A stretch of DNA of 6,310 nt from the IMG/VR virus record IMGVR_UViG_2660238309_000007, positions 1-6,310 of that record; one strand, written 5' to 3'. Under the pieces are notes generated by a model that had not been told where the DNA came from, searched no databases, and worked only from the letters and a program-made list of their open reading frames with translations. Shown one piece after another: positions 1-6,310 of the stretch (its first letter is position 1; every line of letters starts with the position of its first letter). This DNA comes from a virus. Taxonomy: Duplodnaviria > Heunggongvirae > Uroviricota > Caudoviricetes. The translations under genes and the position numbers were made by a program.

Positions 1-61
1 TGTTGTTCTGAGGTGAGCATATCACCTCTGTTCAGGTGGCCAAATTCAGTGTGCCACTTCA
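1..61. repeat. Left terminal inverted repeat, 61 bp, perfect reverse complement of 6249-6309
   Basis: Direct comparison: the reverse complement of 6249-6309 equals 1-61 base for base; the match breaks at 62 vs 6248. Internal hairpins: gaggtga (10-16) pairs with tcacctc (22-28) around a 5-nt loop, and gtggc (36-40) pairs with gccac (53-57). Confidence 0.9.
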
Positions 62-81
62 GACATTCTGAGGTGACAGCG

Positions 82-960
82 ATGATGACGTTTAACCTGC
101 GTGAACAACAAAAAAGACTACAGGCGCGAATGGATGAGTTACGGGCAGAGATTGCATTTGCTCAGAAGGGCGAAAAGCCATGGCCTTATCGTTCCTGCCT
201 GATGCGTGAAGGTCGCGGATATTGCGAAAAACATGGCGAATATCACACGCATATACTGGTGTGGAGCGATCGTAATGGCGAGGACAGAGAAGAAATTTCA
301 TGCTGCCCTGACTGCTTAATCGCTGAGGCCAACGATTTGACCATGGAGCTGTCGTCCATCAAGGCGGAAGAGCTGACTGATAACGCCGGAATTGCCCTGC
401 GTTTTCGGGACTGCGAGTTTGATAATTATCTGGAGGTTAATCCTGGCGCAGCCAGAAATCTTGCGGCCTGTCGCCGCTATGCGGAGAACTGGCCAGATAT
501 GCTGGAGAACGGTACCAGTCTTGTTATGACCGGCAGTTGTGGTACCGGAAAAAATCATCTGGCTGTGGCTATGGCAAAACACATCATCCGTAACTATCTG
601 GCCAGTGTGGAGATCACCGACGTGATGCGCCTTACCCGTGCTGTGAAAAATTGCTGGCGGAATGACAGCGAAAAAACAGCGGATGAAGTTATTGAGCGTT
701 ATGCGTCAATGGATTTGCTGATCATCGACGAAGTTGGCGTTCAGTTTGGCAGCGCGGCTGAAATGGCTATTTTGCAGGAAATTATCAACGCCAGGTACGA
801 AAGTATCTTGCCCACCATTCTGATCAGTAACCTCTCACCGGAAGAGTTGTGGGCGTTCATCAGTCCCCGAATTGCCGACAGGATCACAGACGGGGGACGC
901 AACTGGTTGTCGTTTAACTGGCCCAGTTACCGTTCTCGTATCAGAGGTGTGGCTGCATGA
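82..960 (+). CDS. DnaC/IstB-like AAA+ helicase loader (phage replication protein)
   Basis: Walker A GSCGTGKNHLAVAMA and Walker B LLIIDEVG in the translation; N-terminal Cys/His cluster (C-x7-C ... CCPDC). Start placed at ATG 82 (GAGGTG Shine-Dalgarno at 70-75) rather than the GTG at 13 of the ORF track. Stop overlaps the next start (ATGA at 957-960). Confidence 0.8.
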   Translation: MMTFNLREQQKRLQARMDELRAEIAFAQKGEKPWPYRSCLMREGRGYCEKHGEYHTHILVWSDRNGEDREEISCCPDCLIAEANDLTMELSSIKAEELTDNAGIALRFRDCEFDNYLEVNPGAARNLAACRRYAENWPDMLENGTSLVMTGSCGTGKNHLAVAMAKHIIRNYLASVEITDVMRLTRAVKNCWRNDSEKTADEVIERYASMDLLIIDEVGVQFGSAAEMAILQEIINARYESILPTILISNLSPEELWAFISPRIADRITDGGRNWLSFNWPSYRSRIRGVAA

Positions 961-2348
961 CAACTCCAGTATGGCGTAACGATGACCTTGAAGGCGCTGT
1001 CATCGGCGCGTTCTTTCTGCGCGGAGCAGATCCTGAAGTGATGGATATTCTGGCCACACTGCCAGCGGACGTTTTTTCTGTACGAGCGTATCAGGATATC
1101 TATACAGGCATCTGCAGACAGGCCCGTGTTTCAGGAGTGATTGACCCCGTGCTGTTGTGTAATGAGATGCCGGAACTTGCCCCGGTGATTACTGATACCG
1201 GGCGTAAAACCTGGGTGAAGTCTTCACTGGAGCACTATGTTGCAGCGTTGCGGCGCAATGCCGCACTGCGCGATGCAGAAAAAACACTGAATGAGGCGCT
1301 GCAGAAATTACGTGATGCGCATACCTGTGAAGCAGCTGAAGATGCCCTGAAGGATGCGCAGAACATGATGGTCACACTGTCGACAGGAAAGGGCGTCATT
1401 CAGCCGGTACATATTGATGATGTGCTTCCGGAAGTGGTTGAGCGTGTTGAATGCCGGAATCAGGGGCTGGAGAAATCCAGGACGTTGATGACCGGTATTG
1501 ATGAACTGGACGCAAAAACAGGCGGTATGGAGCCCGGAGACCTGGTATTCATTGCCGCCCGTCCTTCGATGGGGAAAACCGAACTTGCGCTGGACATCAT
1601 CGACAAGGTGACTGAGCAGGGGCATGGTGTGCTTCTGTTCACCATGGAGATGGCGAACATCCAGATTGGTGAACGTATGGTGTCTGCGGCTGGAGGGATG
1701 CCAGTATCACGCCTGAAATCTGTGGCTCACTTTGAAGATGAAGACTGGACGCGTTTCTCACAAGGGGTGGGGCGGATGACCGGGCGCAATATCTGGATGG
1801 TGGACCAGGCGAACCTGGCCATTGATGAGATATGCGCAACAACGAAACACCACCTGATTAAATATCCGGAAACGGCGCTGGTGGTGGTTGATTATCTCGG
1901 GCTGATAAAAACCCGAACCACGGGGCGTCATGACCTTGCCGTGGGTGAAATCTCAAAGGGGCTTAAAGGCCTGGCAAAATCCGGTGGTTTTCCGTTGATT
2001 GCGCTGAGCCAGCTCTCCCGCGGTGTGGAGTCCAGACCCAATAAACGTCCCATGAACTCAGACCTGAAAAATTCCGGAGAAATAGAGGCGGATGCAGACA
2101 TCATTCTGATGCTTTACAGGGATGAAGTGTACAACCCGGATACGCAGGCCAGGGGCATCGCAGAAATCAATATCACGAAACAACGTAACGGTTCTCTGGG
2201 AACGATTTACCGGCGTTTTTATAACGGACATTTTCTGCCTGTGGACCAGGAAAGTGCACGGGTGCTTTCCACTCCCATGAAGCCCGGCAATCCGCGCAGA
2301 TACAGTAATAAACGAACTGACAGCAGTAAGATGGAGCGTTTCTTTTGA
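957..2348 (+). CDS. DnaB-family replicative helicase
   Basis: N-terminal DnaB-like domain pattern (LEGAVIGAFFL ... YQDIYTGI), Walker A ARPSMGKTELALDI, Walker B LVVVDYLGLI, motif IALSQLSR and late RecA-fold motifs. GAGGTG Shine-Dalgarno at 944-949. ATGA overlap with the upstream loader implies translational coupling. Confidence 0.88.
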   Translation: MTTPVWRNDDLEGAVIGAFFLRGADPEVMDILATLPADVFSVRAYQDIYTGICRQARVSGVIDPVLLCNEMPELAPVITDTGRKTWVKSSLEHYVAALRRNAALRDAEKTLNEALQKLRDAHTCEAAEDALKDAQNMMVTLSTGKGVIQPVHIDDVLPEVVERVECRNQGLEKSRTLMTGIDELDAKTGGMEPGDLVFIAARPSMGKTELALDIIDKVTEQGHGVLLFTMEMANIQIGERMVSAAGGMPVSRLKSVAHFEDEDWTRFSQGVGRMTGRNIWMVDQANLAIDEICATTKHHLIKYPETALVVVDYLGLIKTRTTGRHDLAVGEISKGLKGLAKSGGFPLIALSQLSRGVESRPNKRPMNSDLKNSGEIEADADIILMLYRDEVYNPDTQARGIAEINITKQRNGSLGTIYRRFYNGHFLPVDQESARVLSTPMKPGNPRRYSNKRTDSSKMERFF

Positions 2349-2602
2349 ACAACCAGACAATGACTTTTACCCCTGAACAATTGCGTAAACACGCGCAGGA
2401 AATGCTGCGTCATGCTGAACAACTCGAAAAAACGGGCATAACAAAAGATGCTATCCGTAAAGATATGGTACCCGCGCTTCGGGAACTGATGCAGGCGAAG
2501 CATCGCGCACAGAAAGCAGTAGATGAGCTGGTGGACTGTGTGGCAGAGCTGGAAACCAGAGTCGGAAAGTTTGAAAAACTGGTGCAGGAGGCGCTGCGCT
2601 GA
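2345..2602 (+). CDS. Small hypothetical protein, predicted coiled-coil (about 80-85 aa)
   Basis: ORF in the track; start ambiguous between TTG 2345 (GGAG about 10 nt upstream, overlaps helicase stop) and ATG 2360. No recognisable catalytic motif. Position matches the small-gene nin/ren zone of lambdoid phages. Confidence 0.5.
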   Translation: MNNQTMTFTPEQLRKHAQEMLRHAEQLEKTGITKDAIRKDMVPALRELMQAKHRAQKAVDELVDCVAELETRVGKFEKLVQEALR

Positions 2603-2697
2603 TGCGCCATGAGTTTGTTTTGCCCTGGCTTGTGCGCGATCATTATGTCCCTGGTGGAAAGCCCGGGATAAAAATCACCGAACCGGAGAGTATTTGA
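2602..2697 (+). CDS. 31-aa micro-ORF, translationally coupled on both sides (hypothetical)
   Basis: ATG at 2602 overlaps the stop of the upstream ORF (TGATG) and its own TGA at 2695-2697 overlaps the ATG of the NinH-like gene (TGATG). Translation MRHEFVLPWLVRDHYVPGGKPGIKITEPESI. Not in the ORF track (too short). Confidence 0.3.
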   Translation: MRHEFVLPWLVRDHYVPGGKPGIKITEPESI

Positions 2698-2897
2698 TGA
2701 GCGTCAAAATTCAAACGATACCGGAACTGCTTATCCAGACACGAGGTAATATGACCGAAGTTTCACGAATGCTGAACTGTAATCGCGCCACGGTAAGAAA
2801 ATATGCTGAAGATAAAGAGGGCAAAGGGCACGCCATTGTTGATGGTGTTCTGATTGTTCATCGTGGATGGGACAGGGGTAAAGACAGTGATGCGTGA
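2697..2897 (+). CDS. ninH: NinH-like small DNA-binding protein with Fis-type helix-turn-helix
   Basis: 66 aa; [22 protein letters not shown] matches the Fis/NtrC-type HTH signature (TRGN-x-T ... R-x-T-hydrophobic-RK); size and position immediately upstream of Q match lambdoid NinH. GGAG at 2684-2687 upstream of ATG 2697. Recalled family resemblance, not searched. Confidence 0.75.
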
Positions 2898-3270
2898 TAT
2901 TCAGCAGGTTCTTGAGCGCTGGGGCGCGTGGGTGGCTAATAATCATGAGGATGTGACCTGGTCGTCCATTGCTGCCGGTTTTAAGGGATTAATCCCTTCA
3001 AAAGTAAAATCCCGCCCGCAATGCTGTGACGATGACGCGATGGTTATATGTGGGTGTATGGCCCGCCTTAACCGGAACAACAACGATCTACATGACTTGC
3101 TGGTTGACTACTACGTGTTTGGGATGACATTCATGACGCTGGCGCGGAAGCATGGATGCTCAGATGGTTATATAGGAAAGAAGCTACAAAAAGCCGAGGG
3201 GGTGGTGGAAGGAATGTTGATGATGTTGGGTGTCCGGTTAGAAATGGACAAATATATTGAACATCCCTGA
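2890..3270 (+). CDS. Q-type late antiterminator (phage 82 / QuuD-like family)
   Basis: 126 aa from ATG 2890 (8-nt overlap with the NinH-like stop). Sequence [33 protein letters not shown] ... [16 protein letters not shown] resembles, from memory, the small Q antiterminators of cryptic lambdoid prophages. Followed by a short intergenic region and an intrinsic terminator as expected for a pR'/tR' cassette. Confidence 0.75.
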
Positions 3271-3356
3271 TGGTAAGGGGCGACTTTCTAGAAAATATTT
3301 TACGTACGTAAAAAACGGGATATTCTGTTAAGAGTGGTTGCTTCGCCACACAGCTT
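3271..3356 (+). promoter_or_regulatory. Expected location of late promoter (pR'-like) and Q-utilisation site
   Basis: Inferred from position between the Q stop and the terminator; AT-rich stretch with weak hexamers (ttttac 3298-3303, 17-bp spacer, tattct 3321-3326). No strong consensus match. Confidence 0.3.
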
Positions 3357-3382
3357 AAACCCGCCTCCGGGCGGGTTTTTTA
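3357..3382 (+). terminator. Rho-independent terminator (tR'-like)
   Basis: Stem cccgcc (3360-3365), loop tccg, stem ggcggg (3370-3375), then T-tract tttttt (3376-3381); an upstream aaa can pair with the T-tract. Confidence 0.75.
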
Positions 3383-3431
3383 TGCCTGAAAAACGGTACA
3401 GGACGTTAAACACGCTGGTGGTCAGATGAGT

Positions 3432-3460
3432 TTGCAGATGTGATGACATATGGTTATTAT
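3432..3460 (+). promoter_or_regulatory. Candidate sigma70 promoter for the tRNA array
   Basis: ttgcag (3432-3437), 17-bp spacer, tattat (3455-3460), about 10 nt upstream of the first tRNA. Moderate hexamer quality only. Confidence 0.35.
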
Positions 3461-3469
3461 TCTGCCTCC

Positions 3470-3546
3470 GGCCCTTTAGCTCAGTTGGTCAGAGCGAGCG
3501 ACTCATAATCGCCAGGTCGCTGGTTCAAGTCCAGCAAGGGCCACCA
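3470..3546 (+). tRNA. tRNA-Ile2 (anticodon CAU, presumably lysidine-modified, reads AUA)
   Basis: Cloverleaf read by hand: acceptor ggccctt/aagggcc, D-arm gctc...gagc, anticodon loop ctCATaa (CAT at 3504-3506), T-loop ttcaagt, discriminator a, encoded CCA. C4 and C5 in the acceptor stem and close similarity to enterobacterial ileX-type tRNA favour Ile2 over Met. Confidence 0.8.
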
Positions 3547-3547
3547 A

Positions 3548-3624
3548 CCACCACTAGCTCATCCGGATAGAGCATCAACCTTCTAAGTTGACGGTGCGAG
3601 GTTCGAGTCCTCGGTGGTGGGCCA
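3548..3624 (+). tRNA. tRNA-Arg (anticodon UCU, reads AGA/AGG)
   Basis: Acceptor ccaccac/gtggtgg (7 perfect pairs), D-arm gctc/gagc, anticodon stem tcaac/gttga with loop ctTCTaa (TCT at 3582-3584), T-arm cgagg-ttcgagt-cctcg, encoded CCA. Confidence 0.85.
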
Positions 3625-3626
3625 GC

Positions 3627-3702
<76 letters not shown>

Positions 3703-3705
3703 TAT

Positions 3706-3780
<75 letters not shown>

Positions 3781-3894
3781 TGACCTTTCTTAAAGTACTC
3801 CAACCTACTGAATCCTAAGGGATACGGCTTTAAGCCTCCTTGCAGAGTTACTTACTGTAACCCACTGTGTAACCCTCTCAGGGCATGCAGACAT

Positions 3895-5499
3895 ATGATT
3901 CAGCTATCCAGTAGTCACAAACTTCCAGCAGTCTACTATCTCTACCAGCGTAACGGCGTCTACTACTTCCGTCTTAGGGTCAGACAATCAAACAATGATA
4001 GAATGACCTCAATATCATTACGGACCAAGGATAGACGCACCGCTATGGCTTACTCAAGGCACATAAAGGCAGCACTCAAGGCAATACACGCAGACAGACC
4101 CAACGCTACCTATGAGGAAATGAGGGAACACCTTAAGGACATCGCTGAGTGTGAACTGTCTATGGGCCGTTCAGATCTCTTTGAGCCTGACATGAGGGAT
4201 ATCTACCGGGACCAATACGGAGAACTTGGTGAGAGCCTTACCGATGCTCTGGCTAGTGAGCCGCTAAGCATTGACCAGCATCGTTACATCAATGAGGCCC
4301 TGAAGGTGCTAAAAGCCTGTATGAGGCGTATCGAAGCGGGAGACAGTCAGCCTCTGATAGATTACGTCGATCTTTTTAATGATATTGATAGGCAAGATAA
4401 CCAAGCAGACTCTGTGTCCCTATCTGTTAATGCTCCAGAAGTAAAACCAGAAGTTACGCCTAGCATTACCATAGCGAGCCTCTTTGAACAATACGAAGCG
4501 GAGAACTATCAGAACTGGAAGCCTGCAACCTTAAGGGAAAACAAGGCGTCACACGCTGCGTTAATCGAAATATTCGACCATCTGGGTCTCAATGCAGACG
4601 CTAACAGGGCTGACATGCTTAGGGTCCGTGATGTGCTCCAGCAGTTACCTAGGAACCGTAAGCAGCGCTTCAAGGATGTCCCACTTGCTGACCTGTTGAG
4701 CCGTGAAGATAAGACAGATTGTCTGGATGTCGTTACCATCAACAACAAGTATCTTATTAAGATGGCTGCTGTCTTTAGGTGGGCTGTGCGCAATGACTTG
4801 ATTAAAAAGAACATGACTGAGGGTCTGGAGCTTAAAGTCCCTCAGCGTAAAGCCTCAGGGGCCCGTAACGCCTTCTCTACGGAGCAGGTGGGGCAACTAC
4901 TGGTCGCAGCTAAGGCATACTCTCAGAAGACCTCTGGTAAGCCGTATCATTATTATGTTACCGCCTTGGCTGCTATCACTGGGGCGAGACTCAATGAAAT
5001 AGCCCAACTACAGGTCAAAGACGTCAGGACCACTGAGGCGGGAACCGTTTATATTCATATCAATGAAGACGATAGTAGTCTACCCGGTAAGAGCATCAAG
5101 AACGCTCATAGTGACCGCTGTGTGCCTCTGGTCGATGGGGCCTATGGTTTTATATTGGCTGACTTTATGGCGCTTGTAGAGACCCGTAGAGGCGCTGACG
5201 GTGATGACGCTATGGTGTTCGATGGTCTGCGTCTCATGAAGAACGGTTACGGTGAGCAGGTGAGTAAATGGTTTAATCGGACGTTGTTGCCTAAAGTCCT
5301 CGTAGACCGTAGCGGCTTAGCGTTTCACTCGTTTAGACATACAGTTGCGGCCCAGTTAAAACAACATGGGGTCGAGTTGGCGTATGCACAGGCGATCATG
5401 GGGCATAGTTCAGGGTCTATTACGTACGACCGTTATGCTAAAGAGGTCGAGGTTGATAGGCTGGTCAATGTGATGGCTGATGTTTATAAGGAGACCTAG
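3895..5499 (+). CDS. Tyrosine recombinase / phage-type integrase (534 aa)
   Basis: C-terminal catalytic signature in the translation: ITGARLNEI (Arg), LAFHSFRHTVA (H-x-x-R), AIMGHSSG (His), SITYDRY (catalytic Tyr). N-terminal YYLYQRNGVYYFRLRV resembles an integrase N-terminal DNA-binding motif. Lies immediately 3' of the tRNA array. No strong Shine-Dalgarno upstream of ATG 3895. Confidence 0.88.
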   Translation: MIQLSSSHKLPAVYYLYQRNGVYYFRLRVRQSNNDRMTSISLRTKDRRTAMAYSRHIKAALKAIHADRPNATYEEMREHLKDIAECELSMGRSDLFEPDMRDIYRDQYGELGESLTDALASEPLSIDQHRYINEALKVLKACMRRIEAGDSQPLIDYVDLFNDIDRQDNQADSVSLSVNAPEVKPEVTPSITIASLFEQYEAENYQNWKPATLRENKASHAALIEIFDHLGLNADANRADMLRVRDVLQQLPRNRKQRFKDVPLADLLSREDKTDCLDVVTINNKYLIKMAAVFRWAVRNDLIKKNMTEGLELKVPQRKASGARNAFSTEQVGQLLVAAKAYSQKTSGKPYHYYVTALAAITGARLNEIAQLQVKDVRTTEAGTVYIHINEDDSSLPGKSIKNAHSDRCVPLVDGAYGFILADFMALVETRRGADGDDAMVFDGLRLMKNGYGEQVSKWFNRTLLPKVLVDRSGLAFHSFRHTVAAQLKQHGVELAYAQAIMGHSSGSITYDRYAKEVEVDRLVNVMADVYKET

Positions 5500-5587
5500 A
5501 GGAGACCATAGTCTAGGATGACACTTACTACAGACCTGTGTGGTCATGTTTTTGACTCATAGTTTTCTCTACTTGTCAAGGGATAAT

Positions 5588-5610
5588 TAATACGACTCAC
5601 TATAGGGAGA
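5588..5610 (+). promoter_or_regulatory. T7 RNA polymerase promoter, perfect 23-bp class III consensus (copy 1)
   Basis: taatacgactcactatagggaga at 5588-5610, exact match to the T7 consensus -17 to +6; predicted +1 G at 5605; transcription rightward on the + strand. Confidence 0.85.
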
Positions 5611-5708
5611 AGGGACACAAAAAGTTTTCTCTTCTAGGATGACACTTACTACAGACCTGTGCGGTCATGTTTTTGACTCATAGTTTTCTCTGCTTGTCAA
5701 GGGGTAAT

Positions 5709-5731
5709 TAATACGACTCACTATAGGGAGA
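5709..5731 (+). promoter_or_regulatory. T7 RNA polymerase promoter, perfect 23-bp consensus (copy 2)
   Basis: taatacgactcactatagggaga at 5709-5731; same orientation as copy 1. Confidence 0.85.
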
Positions 5732-5828
5732 AGGGACACAAAAAGTTTTCTCTTCTAGGATGACACTTACTACAGACCTGTGTGGTCATGTTTTTGACTC
5801 ATGGTTTTCTCTACTTGTCAAGGATAAT

Positions 5829-5851
5829 TAATACGACTCACTATAGGGAGA
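5829..5851 (+). promoter_or_regulatory. T7 RNA polymerase promoter, perfect 23-bp consensus (copy 3)
   Basis: taatacgactcactatagggaga at 5829-5851; same orientation. Confidence 0.85.
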
Positions 5852-6048
5852 AGGGACACAAAAAGTTTTCTCTTCTAGGACAACTAACCGTAACTTATCG
5901 CATCCTTTCAGGGGCGGGATGACCAATTACAGACACCAAGCGTTCTACTTAAAGTGAATGCTTCCTGTGTGCTCTGGGTCAGTCGATAAGTGAATAGCAA
6001 TAAGACACAATCATCTTAATTATGGTCTCTAGTCCCTACAGGGGCTTA

Positions 6049-6192
6049 ACTTAAAGTTAACTTAAAGACACAATTAAAGATTAACTTATAGTATTACTTA
6101 AAGTTAACTTAAAGACACAATTAGAGATTAACTTTAAGTATTAAATAAAAGATTTAATTAAAGACCAATTAAAGATTAACTCTAAGGGAATA
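6049..6192. repeat. AT-rich short tandem repeat array (TTAAAG / ACTTAAAG motifs; two 47-bp units plus degenerate copies)
   Basis: 6049-6095 (acttaaagttaacttaaagacacaattaaagattaacttatagtatt) and 6096-6142 differ at only 3 positions; 6143-6192 continues with degenerate aattaaag units. No ORF. Lies about 200 bp downstream of the third T7 promoter. Confidence 0.85.
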
Positions 6193-6248
6193 CCTTAAGG
6201 GGTGATGATATTTATAATAATCAATCACCAAACCTATAGGTCTTCTCT

Positions 6249-6309
6249 TGAAGTGGCACACTGAATTTGGCCACCTGAACAGAGGTGATATGCTCACCTC
6301 AGAACAACA
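6249..6309. repeat. Right terminal inverted repeat, 61 bp, perfect reverse complement of 1-61
   Basis: See left copy; perfect over 61 bp, with the same internal hairpins on the opposite strand. Confidence 0.9.
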
Positions 6310-6310
6310 C

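Follow-up and report, generated by a model that had tools for sequence, protein, structure and literature searches.

The window analyzed here is the whole 6,310-nt stretch of DNA at positions 1-6,310 of the IMG/VR virus record IMGVR_UViG_2660238309_000007 (Caudoviricetes). Positions 5881-6248 of this window are read here, with a probability of a little under one half (about 0.48), as the non-coding control module of an integrative element of about 6 kb that exploits T7-like phages, and an AT-rich array within the module as the melting part of a transcription-primed origin of the T7 type. The region is read as the core of such an origin because the anatomy of the element fits the requirements that laboratory work ascribes to T7 for replicating, packaging, and transducing foreign DNA. 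One report (PMC13236587, citing Chung & Hinkle 1990) states that T7 replicates, packages, and transduces plasmids carrying a T7 origin together with a packaging (pac) site and terminal repeat. Replication of T7 itself starts at phi1.1A/B, secondary origins include phiOR and phi6.5, and a T7 RNA polymerase promoter is essential to every one of its origins (PMC8373140). Coordinates of the features discussed are collected in Table 1.

The AT-rich array and its likeness to T7 origins

Three promoter 23-mers (TAATACGACTCACTATAGGGAGA) were found on the + strand at 5588-5610, 5709-5731, and 5829-5851, with predicted transcription starts at 5605, 5726, and 5846. All three are exact copies of the T7 consensus, match T7 promoters exactly over 23-27 nt, and are oriented into the proposed origin, as is the phage polymerase promoter of a T7-type origin. 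The array begins 200 nt past the last of these starts. This agrees with the sequence-only reading of the region, which had described three T7 promoters followed, at that distance, by near-identical 47-bp AT-rich TTAAAG units without an open reading frame (ORF).

The array is 136 bp long and 81% AT, and was recovered by Tandem Repeats Finder (TRF) with a period of 47, 2.9 copies, 86% matches, and a score of 200, along with sub-periods of 11 and 23. In a repeat search the copies at 6049-6095 and 6096-6142 were 94% identical and the third copy was looser. The GC fraction was 0.19 at 6050-6149 and 0.37-0.51 in the flanks, making this the most AT-rich DNA of the window. Successive TTAAAG-type motifs in the array are spaced by 11, 12, 13, 11, 11, 12, 13, 12, 12, and 11 bp, and 7 of the 18 plus-strand TAAAG pentamers in the entire window fall within 6052-6170. 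Two ORFs of at least 40 aa touch the region, at 5782-5922 (+ strand, 46 aa, GTG start) and 6169-6297 (- strand, 42 aa, running into IS911); neither had a Pfam match, and no credible ORF overlaps the array.

The array was compared with the whole 39,937-nt T7 genome using small words and no masking. Its best matches were at T7 5912-6007, after phi1.1B in the primary origin, at 414-484, after phiOL, and at 18564-18634, after phi6.5. These three tracts are also the only 100-bp windows of T7 with an AT fraction of at least 0.72. The top score, 38.3 bits at T7 5935-6005, was reached by none of 200 control sequences (24.0 ± 2.8 bits for first-order Markov sequences and 22.7 ± 2.4 for shuffles, with a maximum of 31.1 for each). 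Like the array, the T7 origin tract is a degenerate array of a TTAAAG-type motif, with spacings of 13, 9, 11, 13, 12, and 12 bp compared to 11-13 bp in the window. The sequence-only reading had called the region origin-like or genome-end-like and had suggested alignment with the ends of T7-like genomes as a check. The origin-like half was supported by these comparisons, since the tracts after phi1.1B, phiOL, and phi6.5 matched above controls and with the same spacing. The genome-end half is weak, since the terminal CCTAAAG arrays matched poorly: the alignment to T7 305-443 (E = 0.04), which covers the end of the left array and the phiOL tract, included them only together with phiOL. In addition, the motif of the window array is (A/T)TTAAAG or ACTTAAAG, set in far more AT-rich DNA than the T7 CCTAAAG heptamers, and the T7 array at 165-345 contained one motif match under the same definition.

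The pentamer recognized by T7 primase is 5'-(G/T)2GTC-3' (PMC12839067). Primase pentamers (GGGTC, TGGTC, or GTGTC) are present near the proposed origin, a statement about presence alone, with 4 on the + strand and 13 on the - strand of 5500-6248. The non-coding region of intact E. coli copies of the element (1.28 kb) had 21 + strand sites, or 16.4 per kb, compared to 2.9 ± 1.7 in shuffled sequences and 4.0 per kb in T7 overall, and most of the tandem-array units in these copies carry a pentamer. Only the first unit (6235-6248) of a GGGTC-bearing array is kept in the window, ahead of IS911.

When the promoter and array region of the window was searched against 50,697 phage records by megablast and blastn, the promoter segments alone were matched, and the array had no match with the BLAST low-complexity filter on. 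A role for the array as a cluster of host promoters, like A1-A3 of T7, was rejected because a scan of 5480-6260 for sigma-70 promoters and terminators yielded one weak promoter, compared to 2.3 expected, and zero terminators.

Several observations weigh against an origin of the T7 type. The array and the T7 tract are both low-complexity sequences with internal repeats, features that inflate their alignment scores, and strings like TTAACTTTAAG are common throughout the intergenic leaders of T7. The AT-rich tract abuts the promoter in T7 but here lies 200 nt past the start site, and the nearly invariant core in between (Table 1) has no counterpart in T7 origins and is left unexplained. Primase site counts are not independent, because most sites lie inside tandem units, and in the Klebsiella copy the sites were not enriched (4.5 per kb). 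The AT-rich tract was weak (0.62-0.72) in the subgroup of relatives that have Kayfunavirus-type promoters. Finally, the integrase gene is upstream of the promoters, which leaves the trigger of excision unexplained.

Table 1. Positions of the features of the window (1-6,310) and the basis on which each was assigned
Feature	Position	Strand	Basis
IS911 end at the left window edge	1..61		exact inverted copy of 6249-6309
tRNA-Gly(UCC), the fourth and last tRNA of the prophage; attL, where the element is integrated	3706..3780	+	ARAGORN
Tyrosine integrase of the element, 534 aa	3895..5499	+	Pfam Phage_integrase, E = 2e-17
CTCTGTGTCCCTATCTGTTA, 20-mer identical to T7 nt 149-168	4410..4429	+	longest exact match in the complete T7 genome apart from the promoters
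Three tandem units of 121 bp, with one exact T7 consensus promoter apiece	5512..5880	+	TRF, 3.1 copies, 96% matches, score 703
5' leader hairpin of the predicted phage polymerase transcript	5846..5880	+	comparison of folds in relatives
Nearly invariant non-coding core, CTAACCGTAACTTATCGCATCCTTTCAGGGGCGGGATGACCAA..ACAGACACCAAGCG, 59 nt	5884..5942	+	invariant columns across seven genera
Second conserved block, GCTTCCTGTGTGCTCTGGGTCAGTCGATAAGTGAATAGCAA	5960..6000	+	alignment of relatives
AT-rich TTAAAG-type array, proposed melting element of a T7-type origin	6046..6181	+	TRF
Conserved palindrome closing the module, GGTGATGATATTTATAATAATCAATCACC	6201..6229		conservation between copies from E. coli and Klebsiella
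First unit of the TAGGGTCTCTCTC array, one GGGTC primase site per unit, cut by IS911	6235..6248	+	comparison with an intact relative
IS911 end at the right window edge, truncating the element	6249..6309		exact inverted copy of 1-61

The integrative element and its junction-like sequence

The module belongs to an element whose intact copies are 5.5-6.4 kb long in at least six genera and are bounded by 17-31 bp direct repeats of the 3' end of tRNA-Gly. Relatives of the integrase are found across the Enterobacterales at 65-97% identity. The gene order is constant: the integrase, cargo in some copies, a non-coding stretch of about 1.1 kb, a DNA-binding protein of the Rha or KilA-N type, an ORF of 62-71 aa, DUF6971, and a protein of 373-402 aa. 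The non-coding stretch holds the phage promoters, the conserved leader, and the AT-rich tract. The 373-aa protein has an HK97 fold and is capsid-like; a Pfam scan of all 31 members of its family gave nothing credible, and its family profile found nothing among Protein Data Bank (PDB) sequences. DUF6971 had no match in a fold search, and alignment with hhalign revealed no similarity of the capsid-fold family to T7 gp10A or of DUF6971 to T7 gp18. In a metagenomic copy (L043 1181-1900) a KilA-N-domain gene replaces the Rha-domain gene, and DUF6971 and the capsid-fold gene are kept.

No replication gene or protein was recognized among the genes of the element, and searches of its proteins with Pfam, PHROGs, and PADLOC gave no initiator, primase, or helicase of the kind that accompanies iteron-type origins (those of PICIs (phage-inducible chromosomal islands), P4, and plasmids). 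As in phage satellites, an integrase and attachment (att) sites bound a small element that is without most virion and lysis genes and that has a component that would interface with helper morphogenesis. A remnant of a temperate T7-like prophage was considered as an alternative identity and rejected, because across genera the element keeps the same size and genes and is bounded by att sites.

Outside the promoters, the element and T7 share as their longest exact match a 20-mer in the integrase gene, in the same orientation as the promoters, for which the background maximum was 13-15 nt. In T7 the corresponding positions, 149-168, extend across the right-hand border of the terminal repeat and over ATCTGTT, the pause signal of the concatemer junction. 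The junction sequence is also present in T3 and in K11, where it is annotated as "concatemeric junction". In the element the motif persists in most relatives, in several genera, located in a linker of the integrase that is hypervariable. The 20-mer did not stand out in a synonymous-codon test (0.65-0.69 compared to 0.59 overall, rank 67-125 of 528), so constraint on it at the DNA level is unproven. The sequence-only reading had given a concatemer-junction and packaging-like region as one of two possibilities for 5881-6248. The right edge of the terminal repeat with ATCTGTT is absent from 5881-6248, and the identical 20-mer is at 4410-4429, 1.4 kb away.

The 20-mer bears on the possibility that the array is a packaging signal, either a mimic of the short arrays at the T7 terminal repeat or a platform for the phage terminase. 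This is possible, and less well supported than the origin reading; on balance it appears unlikely. TAAAG-type arrays do adjoin the T7 terminal repeat, the phiOL tract included in the alignment to T7 305-443 is within 500 nt of the T7 left end, and on this explanation some packaging signal must exist, because the element has both the junction-identical 20-mer and a capsid-fold gene. However, the best matches of the array were internal origin and post-promoter tracts rather than CCTAAAG arrays, the scarcity of its motif in T7 165-345 argues in the same direction, the junction-like sequence is 1.6 kb from the array, and neither a segment like the terminal repeat nor the left-end motif TCTCACAG was present near the array. 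T7 nt 1-160 had no match to the element beyond 13-15 nt, and no terminal repeat with the left terminus TCTCAYAGT was found. The sole likeness to the left end of a terminal repeat is weak, a 9-nt sequence (CTCATAGTT) in each 121-bp unit that matches the T3 left terminus (TCTCATAGTT) and has a probability of about 0.02-0.05 of arising by chance. It is included in TTGACTCATAGTTTTCTCTACTTGTCAA, a TTGAC...GTCAA palindrome at 5548-5580 and again at 5669 and 5789.

The idea that a T7-like helper could replicate or package the element has strong, though indirect, support in its att bounds, the tracking of host genus by promoter type (see below), the capsid-like gene, the absence of a replication gene, and the junction 20-mer. 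It can be proposed tentatively that these elements form a family of minimal (about 6 kb) satellites of virulent T7-like phages (Studiervirinae) across the Enterobacterales, which would be induced by the helper RNA polymerase through interchangeable promoters, copied by the helper replisome from a T7-type origin, cut at the junction mimic, packaged with the aid of their own HK97-fold protein, and would carry anti-T7 defense cargo such as PD-T7-4/RAZR. A homolog of PD-T7-4/RAZR (PADLOC, E = 8e-99) was the cargo in Klebsiella and in one Logan contig. This DUF4145 gene directly follows the integrase and overlaps its stop codon (L018 9624-10256; L041 2170-2811), and the slot after the integrase looks like a hotspot for defense cargo in the element. 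The element apparently belongs to an undescribed family. In a literature search of partial coverage, neither satellites of T7-like phages nor chromosomal elements with phage polymerase promoters were described, and DUF6971 was not mentioned.

Scanning viral contigs with the invariant core gave two matches, at least one of which (L040) was in a prophage and tRNA-cluster context like that of the window, and no evidence of packaged DNA. Of the short contigs (about 6-7 kb) with the capsid-fold gene, the two that were examined were not free elements: one had chromosomal flanks, and the other was a fragment without the integrase.

The part of the window to the left of the element is of a different origin. 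Positions 62-3780 are an ordinary segment of a lambdoid prophage, 99.9% identical to many E. coli prophages, that encodes a DnaC-like loader, DnaB helicase, the Q antiterminator, and four tRNAs. Similarity to lambdoid prophages stops at 3780, and 3781-6248 is different DNA. The element sits in the tRNA-Gly(UCC) gene of the prophage tRNA cluster downstream of Q (3470-3780), whereas E. coli copies use the chromosomal glyU, and in the window a putative satellite of virulent phages is thus nested within a temperate prophage. The IS911 arms at the two edges are 61 nt long, 100% complementary, and match IS911-annotated sequence in the Sf6 and SfII phage records. Because an identical IS911 terminus is found, inverted, at both ends, the window is a fragment between two insertion sequences (IS).

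At its right edge IS911 cuts the element at 6248, and all sequence beyond was removed. The copy in the window is therefore a remnant, which because of this truncation is probably not mobile any more, and which probably can still be transcribed by T7 RNA polymerase. Integrases identical to that of the window are widespread in Shigella flexneri, and IS elements interrupt the locus there. A query with the element part of the window had at least partial matches in 381 of 5,426 complete E. coli genomes, and in 39 of these at least 80% of the query was covered.

Conservation of the non-coding module and its promoters

Single-subunit RNA polymerase promoters were found downstream of the integrase in all subfamilies of the element, and the specificity region of these promoters varied with the host. 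Copies in E. coli and Shigella had the T7 consensus promoter, with exact matches to T7 promoters. Klebsiella copies had AATTAGGGCACACTATAGGGAGA, which matched 173 phage records, 161 of them from Klebsiella phages such as K11 and KP32; there are about 10 such sites per phage genome, labeled "promoter" in the K11 annotation. Citrobacter and Buttiauxella copies had TTAACTATCACTATAGGGAGA, annotated "promoter" in Kayfunavirus-type phages such as EcoDS1, and Proteus copies had AATTAACCCACACTATAGGGAGA, for which phage matches were only 90-93% identical. Klebsiella-type copies carry two or three promoters of different specificity (K11-type, T7-type, and AATTAGGTAGCACTATAGGGAGA) within about 120 nt, at L018 10264-10380 and at the metagenome loci L047-L059, as if answering several phage lineages. 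The number of phage promoters ranged from one to three among copies, even within the Shigella type (1 versus 3).

A 5'-terminal stem-loop was predicted for the phage polymerase transcript in five relatives, with z scores of -0.8 to -4.2, despite differing leader sequences. The late mRNAs of T7 likewise begin with a 5' stem-loop. Conservation of these leader hairpins is comparative evidence that phage polymerases really use the promoters.

The module at 5881-6248 has homologs in E. coli, Klebsiella, Rouxiella, Morganella, Edaphovirga, and one further enterobacterium, in which the order is the leader hairpin, the 59-nt core, the second block, CAGGGGCTTAACTTAAAG, the AT-rich TAAAG-type tract, and the palindrome. 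The core is the most conserved non-coding sequence of the whole element and exceeds the surrounding coding sequence in conservation. The 200 bp ahead of the array, described from the sequence alone as unique sequence, is not filler, since it contains this core, which is nearly invariant across seven genera. Searching with nhmmer found the core only in the subfamily with at least 80% integrase identity, and in 29 unique variants it was always 66-310 nt downstream of one to three phage promoters.

The AT-rich tract is single-copy and 115-116 bp long in other genera and tandemly expanded in E. coli and Shigella, to 162-222 bp and 12-17 motifs. For this comparison the palindrome, which reads GGTGATGATATTTAT...ATCACC, served as the anchor. 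TRF analysis of 20 relatives confined strong tandem arrays to the E. coli/Shigella clade, which indicates that the array as such is not the conserved feature. As judged by these alignments, the 47-bp array is a recent amplification, variable in copy number, of a single-copy tract. Most relatives have an AT-rich TAAAG/TTAAG tract 200-430 bp downstream of a phage promoter, including some without detectable homology to the module, and this recurrence indicates that what is conserved is the succession of a phage promoter and an AT-rich TAAAG tract.

An intact element is carried, for instance, by E. coli 21AR0133 (NZ_CM132251 975043-982400). Intact E. coli copies, exemplified by L015 7749-8843, have a non-coding mosaic of at least six different tandem arrays. 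Repeats of GATGACCATAGGC and CCTGTGTGGT precede the AT-rich TTAAAG array, and TAGGGTCTCTCTC (about 10 units; 9.7 at L015 8489-8608), CTCAGTTTTGAGC units, and CACCACTAG arrays follow it. The contig L040 is an uninterrupted continuation of the Shigella type past 6248.

These comparisons also bear on the idea that the tract is a phased, intrinsically bent platform on which the Rha/KilA-N protein of the element, or H-NS, IHF, or Fis, silences or regulates the element until infection. With a spacing of 11-13 bp the motifs all lie along the same side of the helix, a DNA-binding protein of the Rha or KilA-N type is encoded by the gene that follows downstream, and the tract, besides being the most AT-rich in the window, is flanked by conserved palindromes at 6201-6229. 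However, motif sequence and copy number drift freely (6-17 motifs), which is unusual for specific operators, Rha and KilA-N are exchanged while the type of tract is unchanged, and the likeness to T7 origin tracts would have to be a coincidence. Such a platform is improbable as the function of the array.

A further explanation, also improbable and somewhat more so, is that the tandem array has no function of its own and arose by replication slippage in an AT-rich spacer that a T7-like ancestor passed on, the element itself being in decay in Shigella. Tract length varies from 115 to 222 bp over all copies, and among Shigella-type copies alone it is 115 versus 162 bp, in parallel with the variation in promoter number. 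The restriction of tandem arrays to one clade, the IS truncation of the window copy, and the IS elements that riddle the S. flexneri copies are all in keeping with this. On the other hand, the single-copy TAAAG tract keeps its position and flanking blocks across genera in which promoters and flanks have diverged, and several different neighboring motifs have been amplified in parallel, each with a primase pentamer. Neutral slippage could account for the amplification, though not for the conservation of the single-copy tract. Tandem amplification, of the promoters as of the array, might adjust how strong the origin is, or it might be neutral.

Function at the level of RNA, with the phage polymerase producing a long structured leader or a non-coding RNA (a decoy, processing signal, or ribosome-binding mimic), is very improbable: three strong promoters do point sense-wise into the region, the leader hairpins are structurally conserved, the 205-nt leader folds with z = -1.86, and a predicted long-range stem (5893-5900 with 5984-5991) has one compensatory double change (T5896-A5988 is replaced by C-G in every Klebsiella-type copy, and mixed states do not occur), but that change counts as one event at the level of a clade, covariation contributes about 0 to the consensus fold, the array has little predicted structure and a variable copy number, and an Rfam search of 5400-6310 at a permissive threshold gave only a chance microRNA match (E = 0.14).

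Proposed mechanism and comparison with known systems

If 5881-6248 is the core of a T7-type origin, the following course can be envisaged for an infection. The phage RNA polymerase would fire from its cognate promoters (5588-5851 in the window), and a transcript with a stabilizing 5' hairpin would cross the conserved leader into the phased AT-rich tract. There, as at phi1.1A/B of T7, the phage DNA polymerase would take over the RNA as its primer. Synthesis in the opposite direction would start from primase pentamers of the displaced strand, which in intact copies are provided by the GGGTC array. The same transcripts would express the downstream Rha/KilA-N, DUF6971, and HK97-fold capsid-like genes, and after circularization would read round into int, where the junction mimic is in the right orientation. 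The phage terminase might then cut the replicated DNA at this mimic, with ends expected at ...GTGTCCCT (window 4423). The promoters, the array and its likeness to T7 origin tracts, the conservation of the module, the switching of promoters with host genus, the capsid fold, the att-bounded size, and the absence of a recognizable replication gene are observations, and priming, replication, cutting, and packaging of the element are inferred.

If this is correct, the element senses infection through the phage's own RNA polymerase, which would be a new logic of induction for satellites because no repressor would be needed, and it has borrowed the origin design and junction sequence of the phage as well. 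This would explain the presence of exact T7, K11, and Kayfunavirus promoters in bacterial chromosomes and would give the PD-T7-4/RAZR defense gene a genomic home. The stacked orthogonal promoters and the compact origin module would be natural parts for T7-based tools for replication and transduction. Since the element is present, at least partly, in 381 of the E. coli genomes searched, it could also matter for therapy or typing with T7-like phages.

[quoted passage not shown] PICMIs have a minimal gene content and are not known to have capsid-remodeling genes, and both differ from the present element in hosts, integration sites, and gene sets. Neither is known to use helper RNA polymerase promoters or an origin of the helper type, and no natural satellite is known for T7, the textbook virulent phage.

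In the primary origin of T7 (phi1.1A/phi1.1B and the AT-rich region, about 5830-6010) and at the secondary origins phiOL, phi6.5, and phiOR, tandem promoters lead into an AT-rich tract, as they do here. TTAAAG/TTTAAG/TTAGAG motifs spaced by about 11-12 bp, with primase pentamers nearby, are common to the T7 origin and the tract of the element. Unlike T7 origins, the element has a conserved 200-nt leader between promoter and tract, its tract is tandemly amplified (up to 222 bp in other copies), and the module is part of a bacterial chromosomal element, relatives of which use the promoters of other phage genera.

Laboratory T7 phagemids and transducing plasmids, as described in the report cited at the outset, combine a T7 origin with concatemer-junction sequence, and the element likewise combines an origin-like module with the junction 20-mer. 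Unlike these constructs, the element is natural and integrative, is bounded by tRNA-Gly repeats, and encodes its own capsid-fold protein, and it is without the full 160-bp terminal repeat or a recognizable pac region.

Among satellites that encode capsid proteins, capsid-forming PICIs (cf-PICIs) and SaPIbov5 with its Ccm protein are available for comparison. In cf-PICIs, which are larger, the head and packaging module is complete, whereas the element described here has about 6 kb of DNA and a single capsid-fold gene and is without genes for a portal, protease, terminase, or replication. The helpers presumed for it are T7-like virulent phages, and its induction would be brought about by the helper RNA polymerase rather than by derepression.

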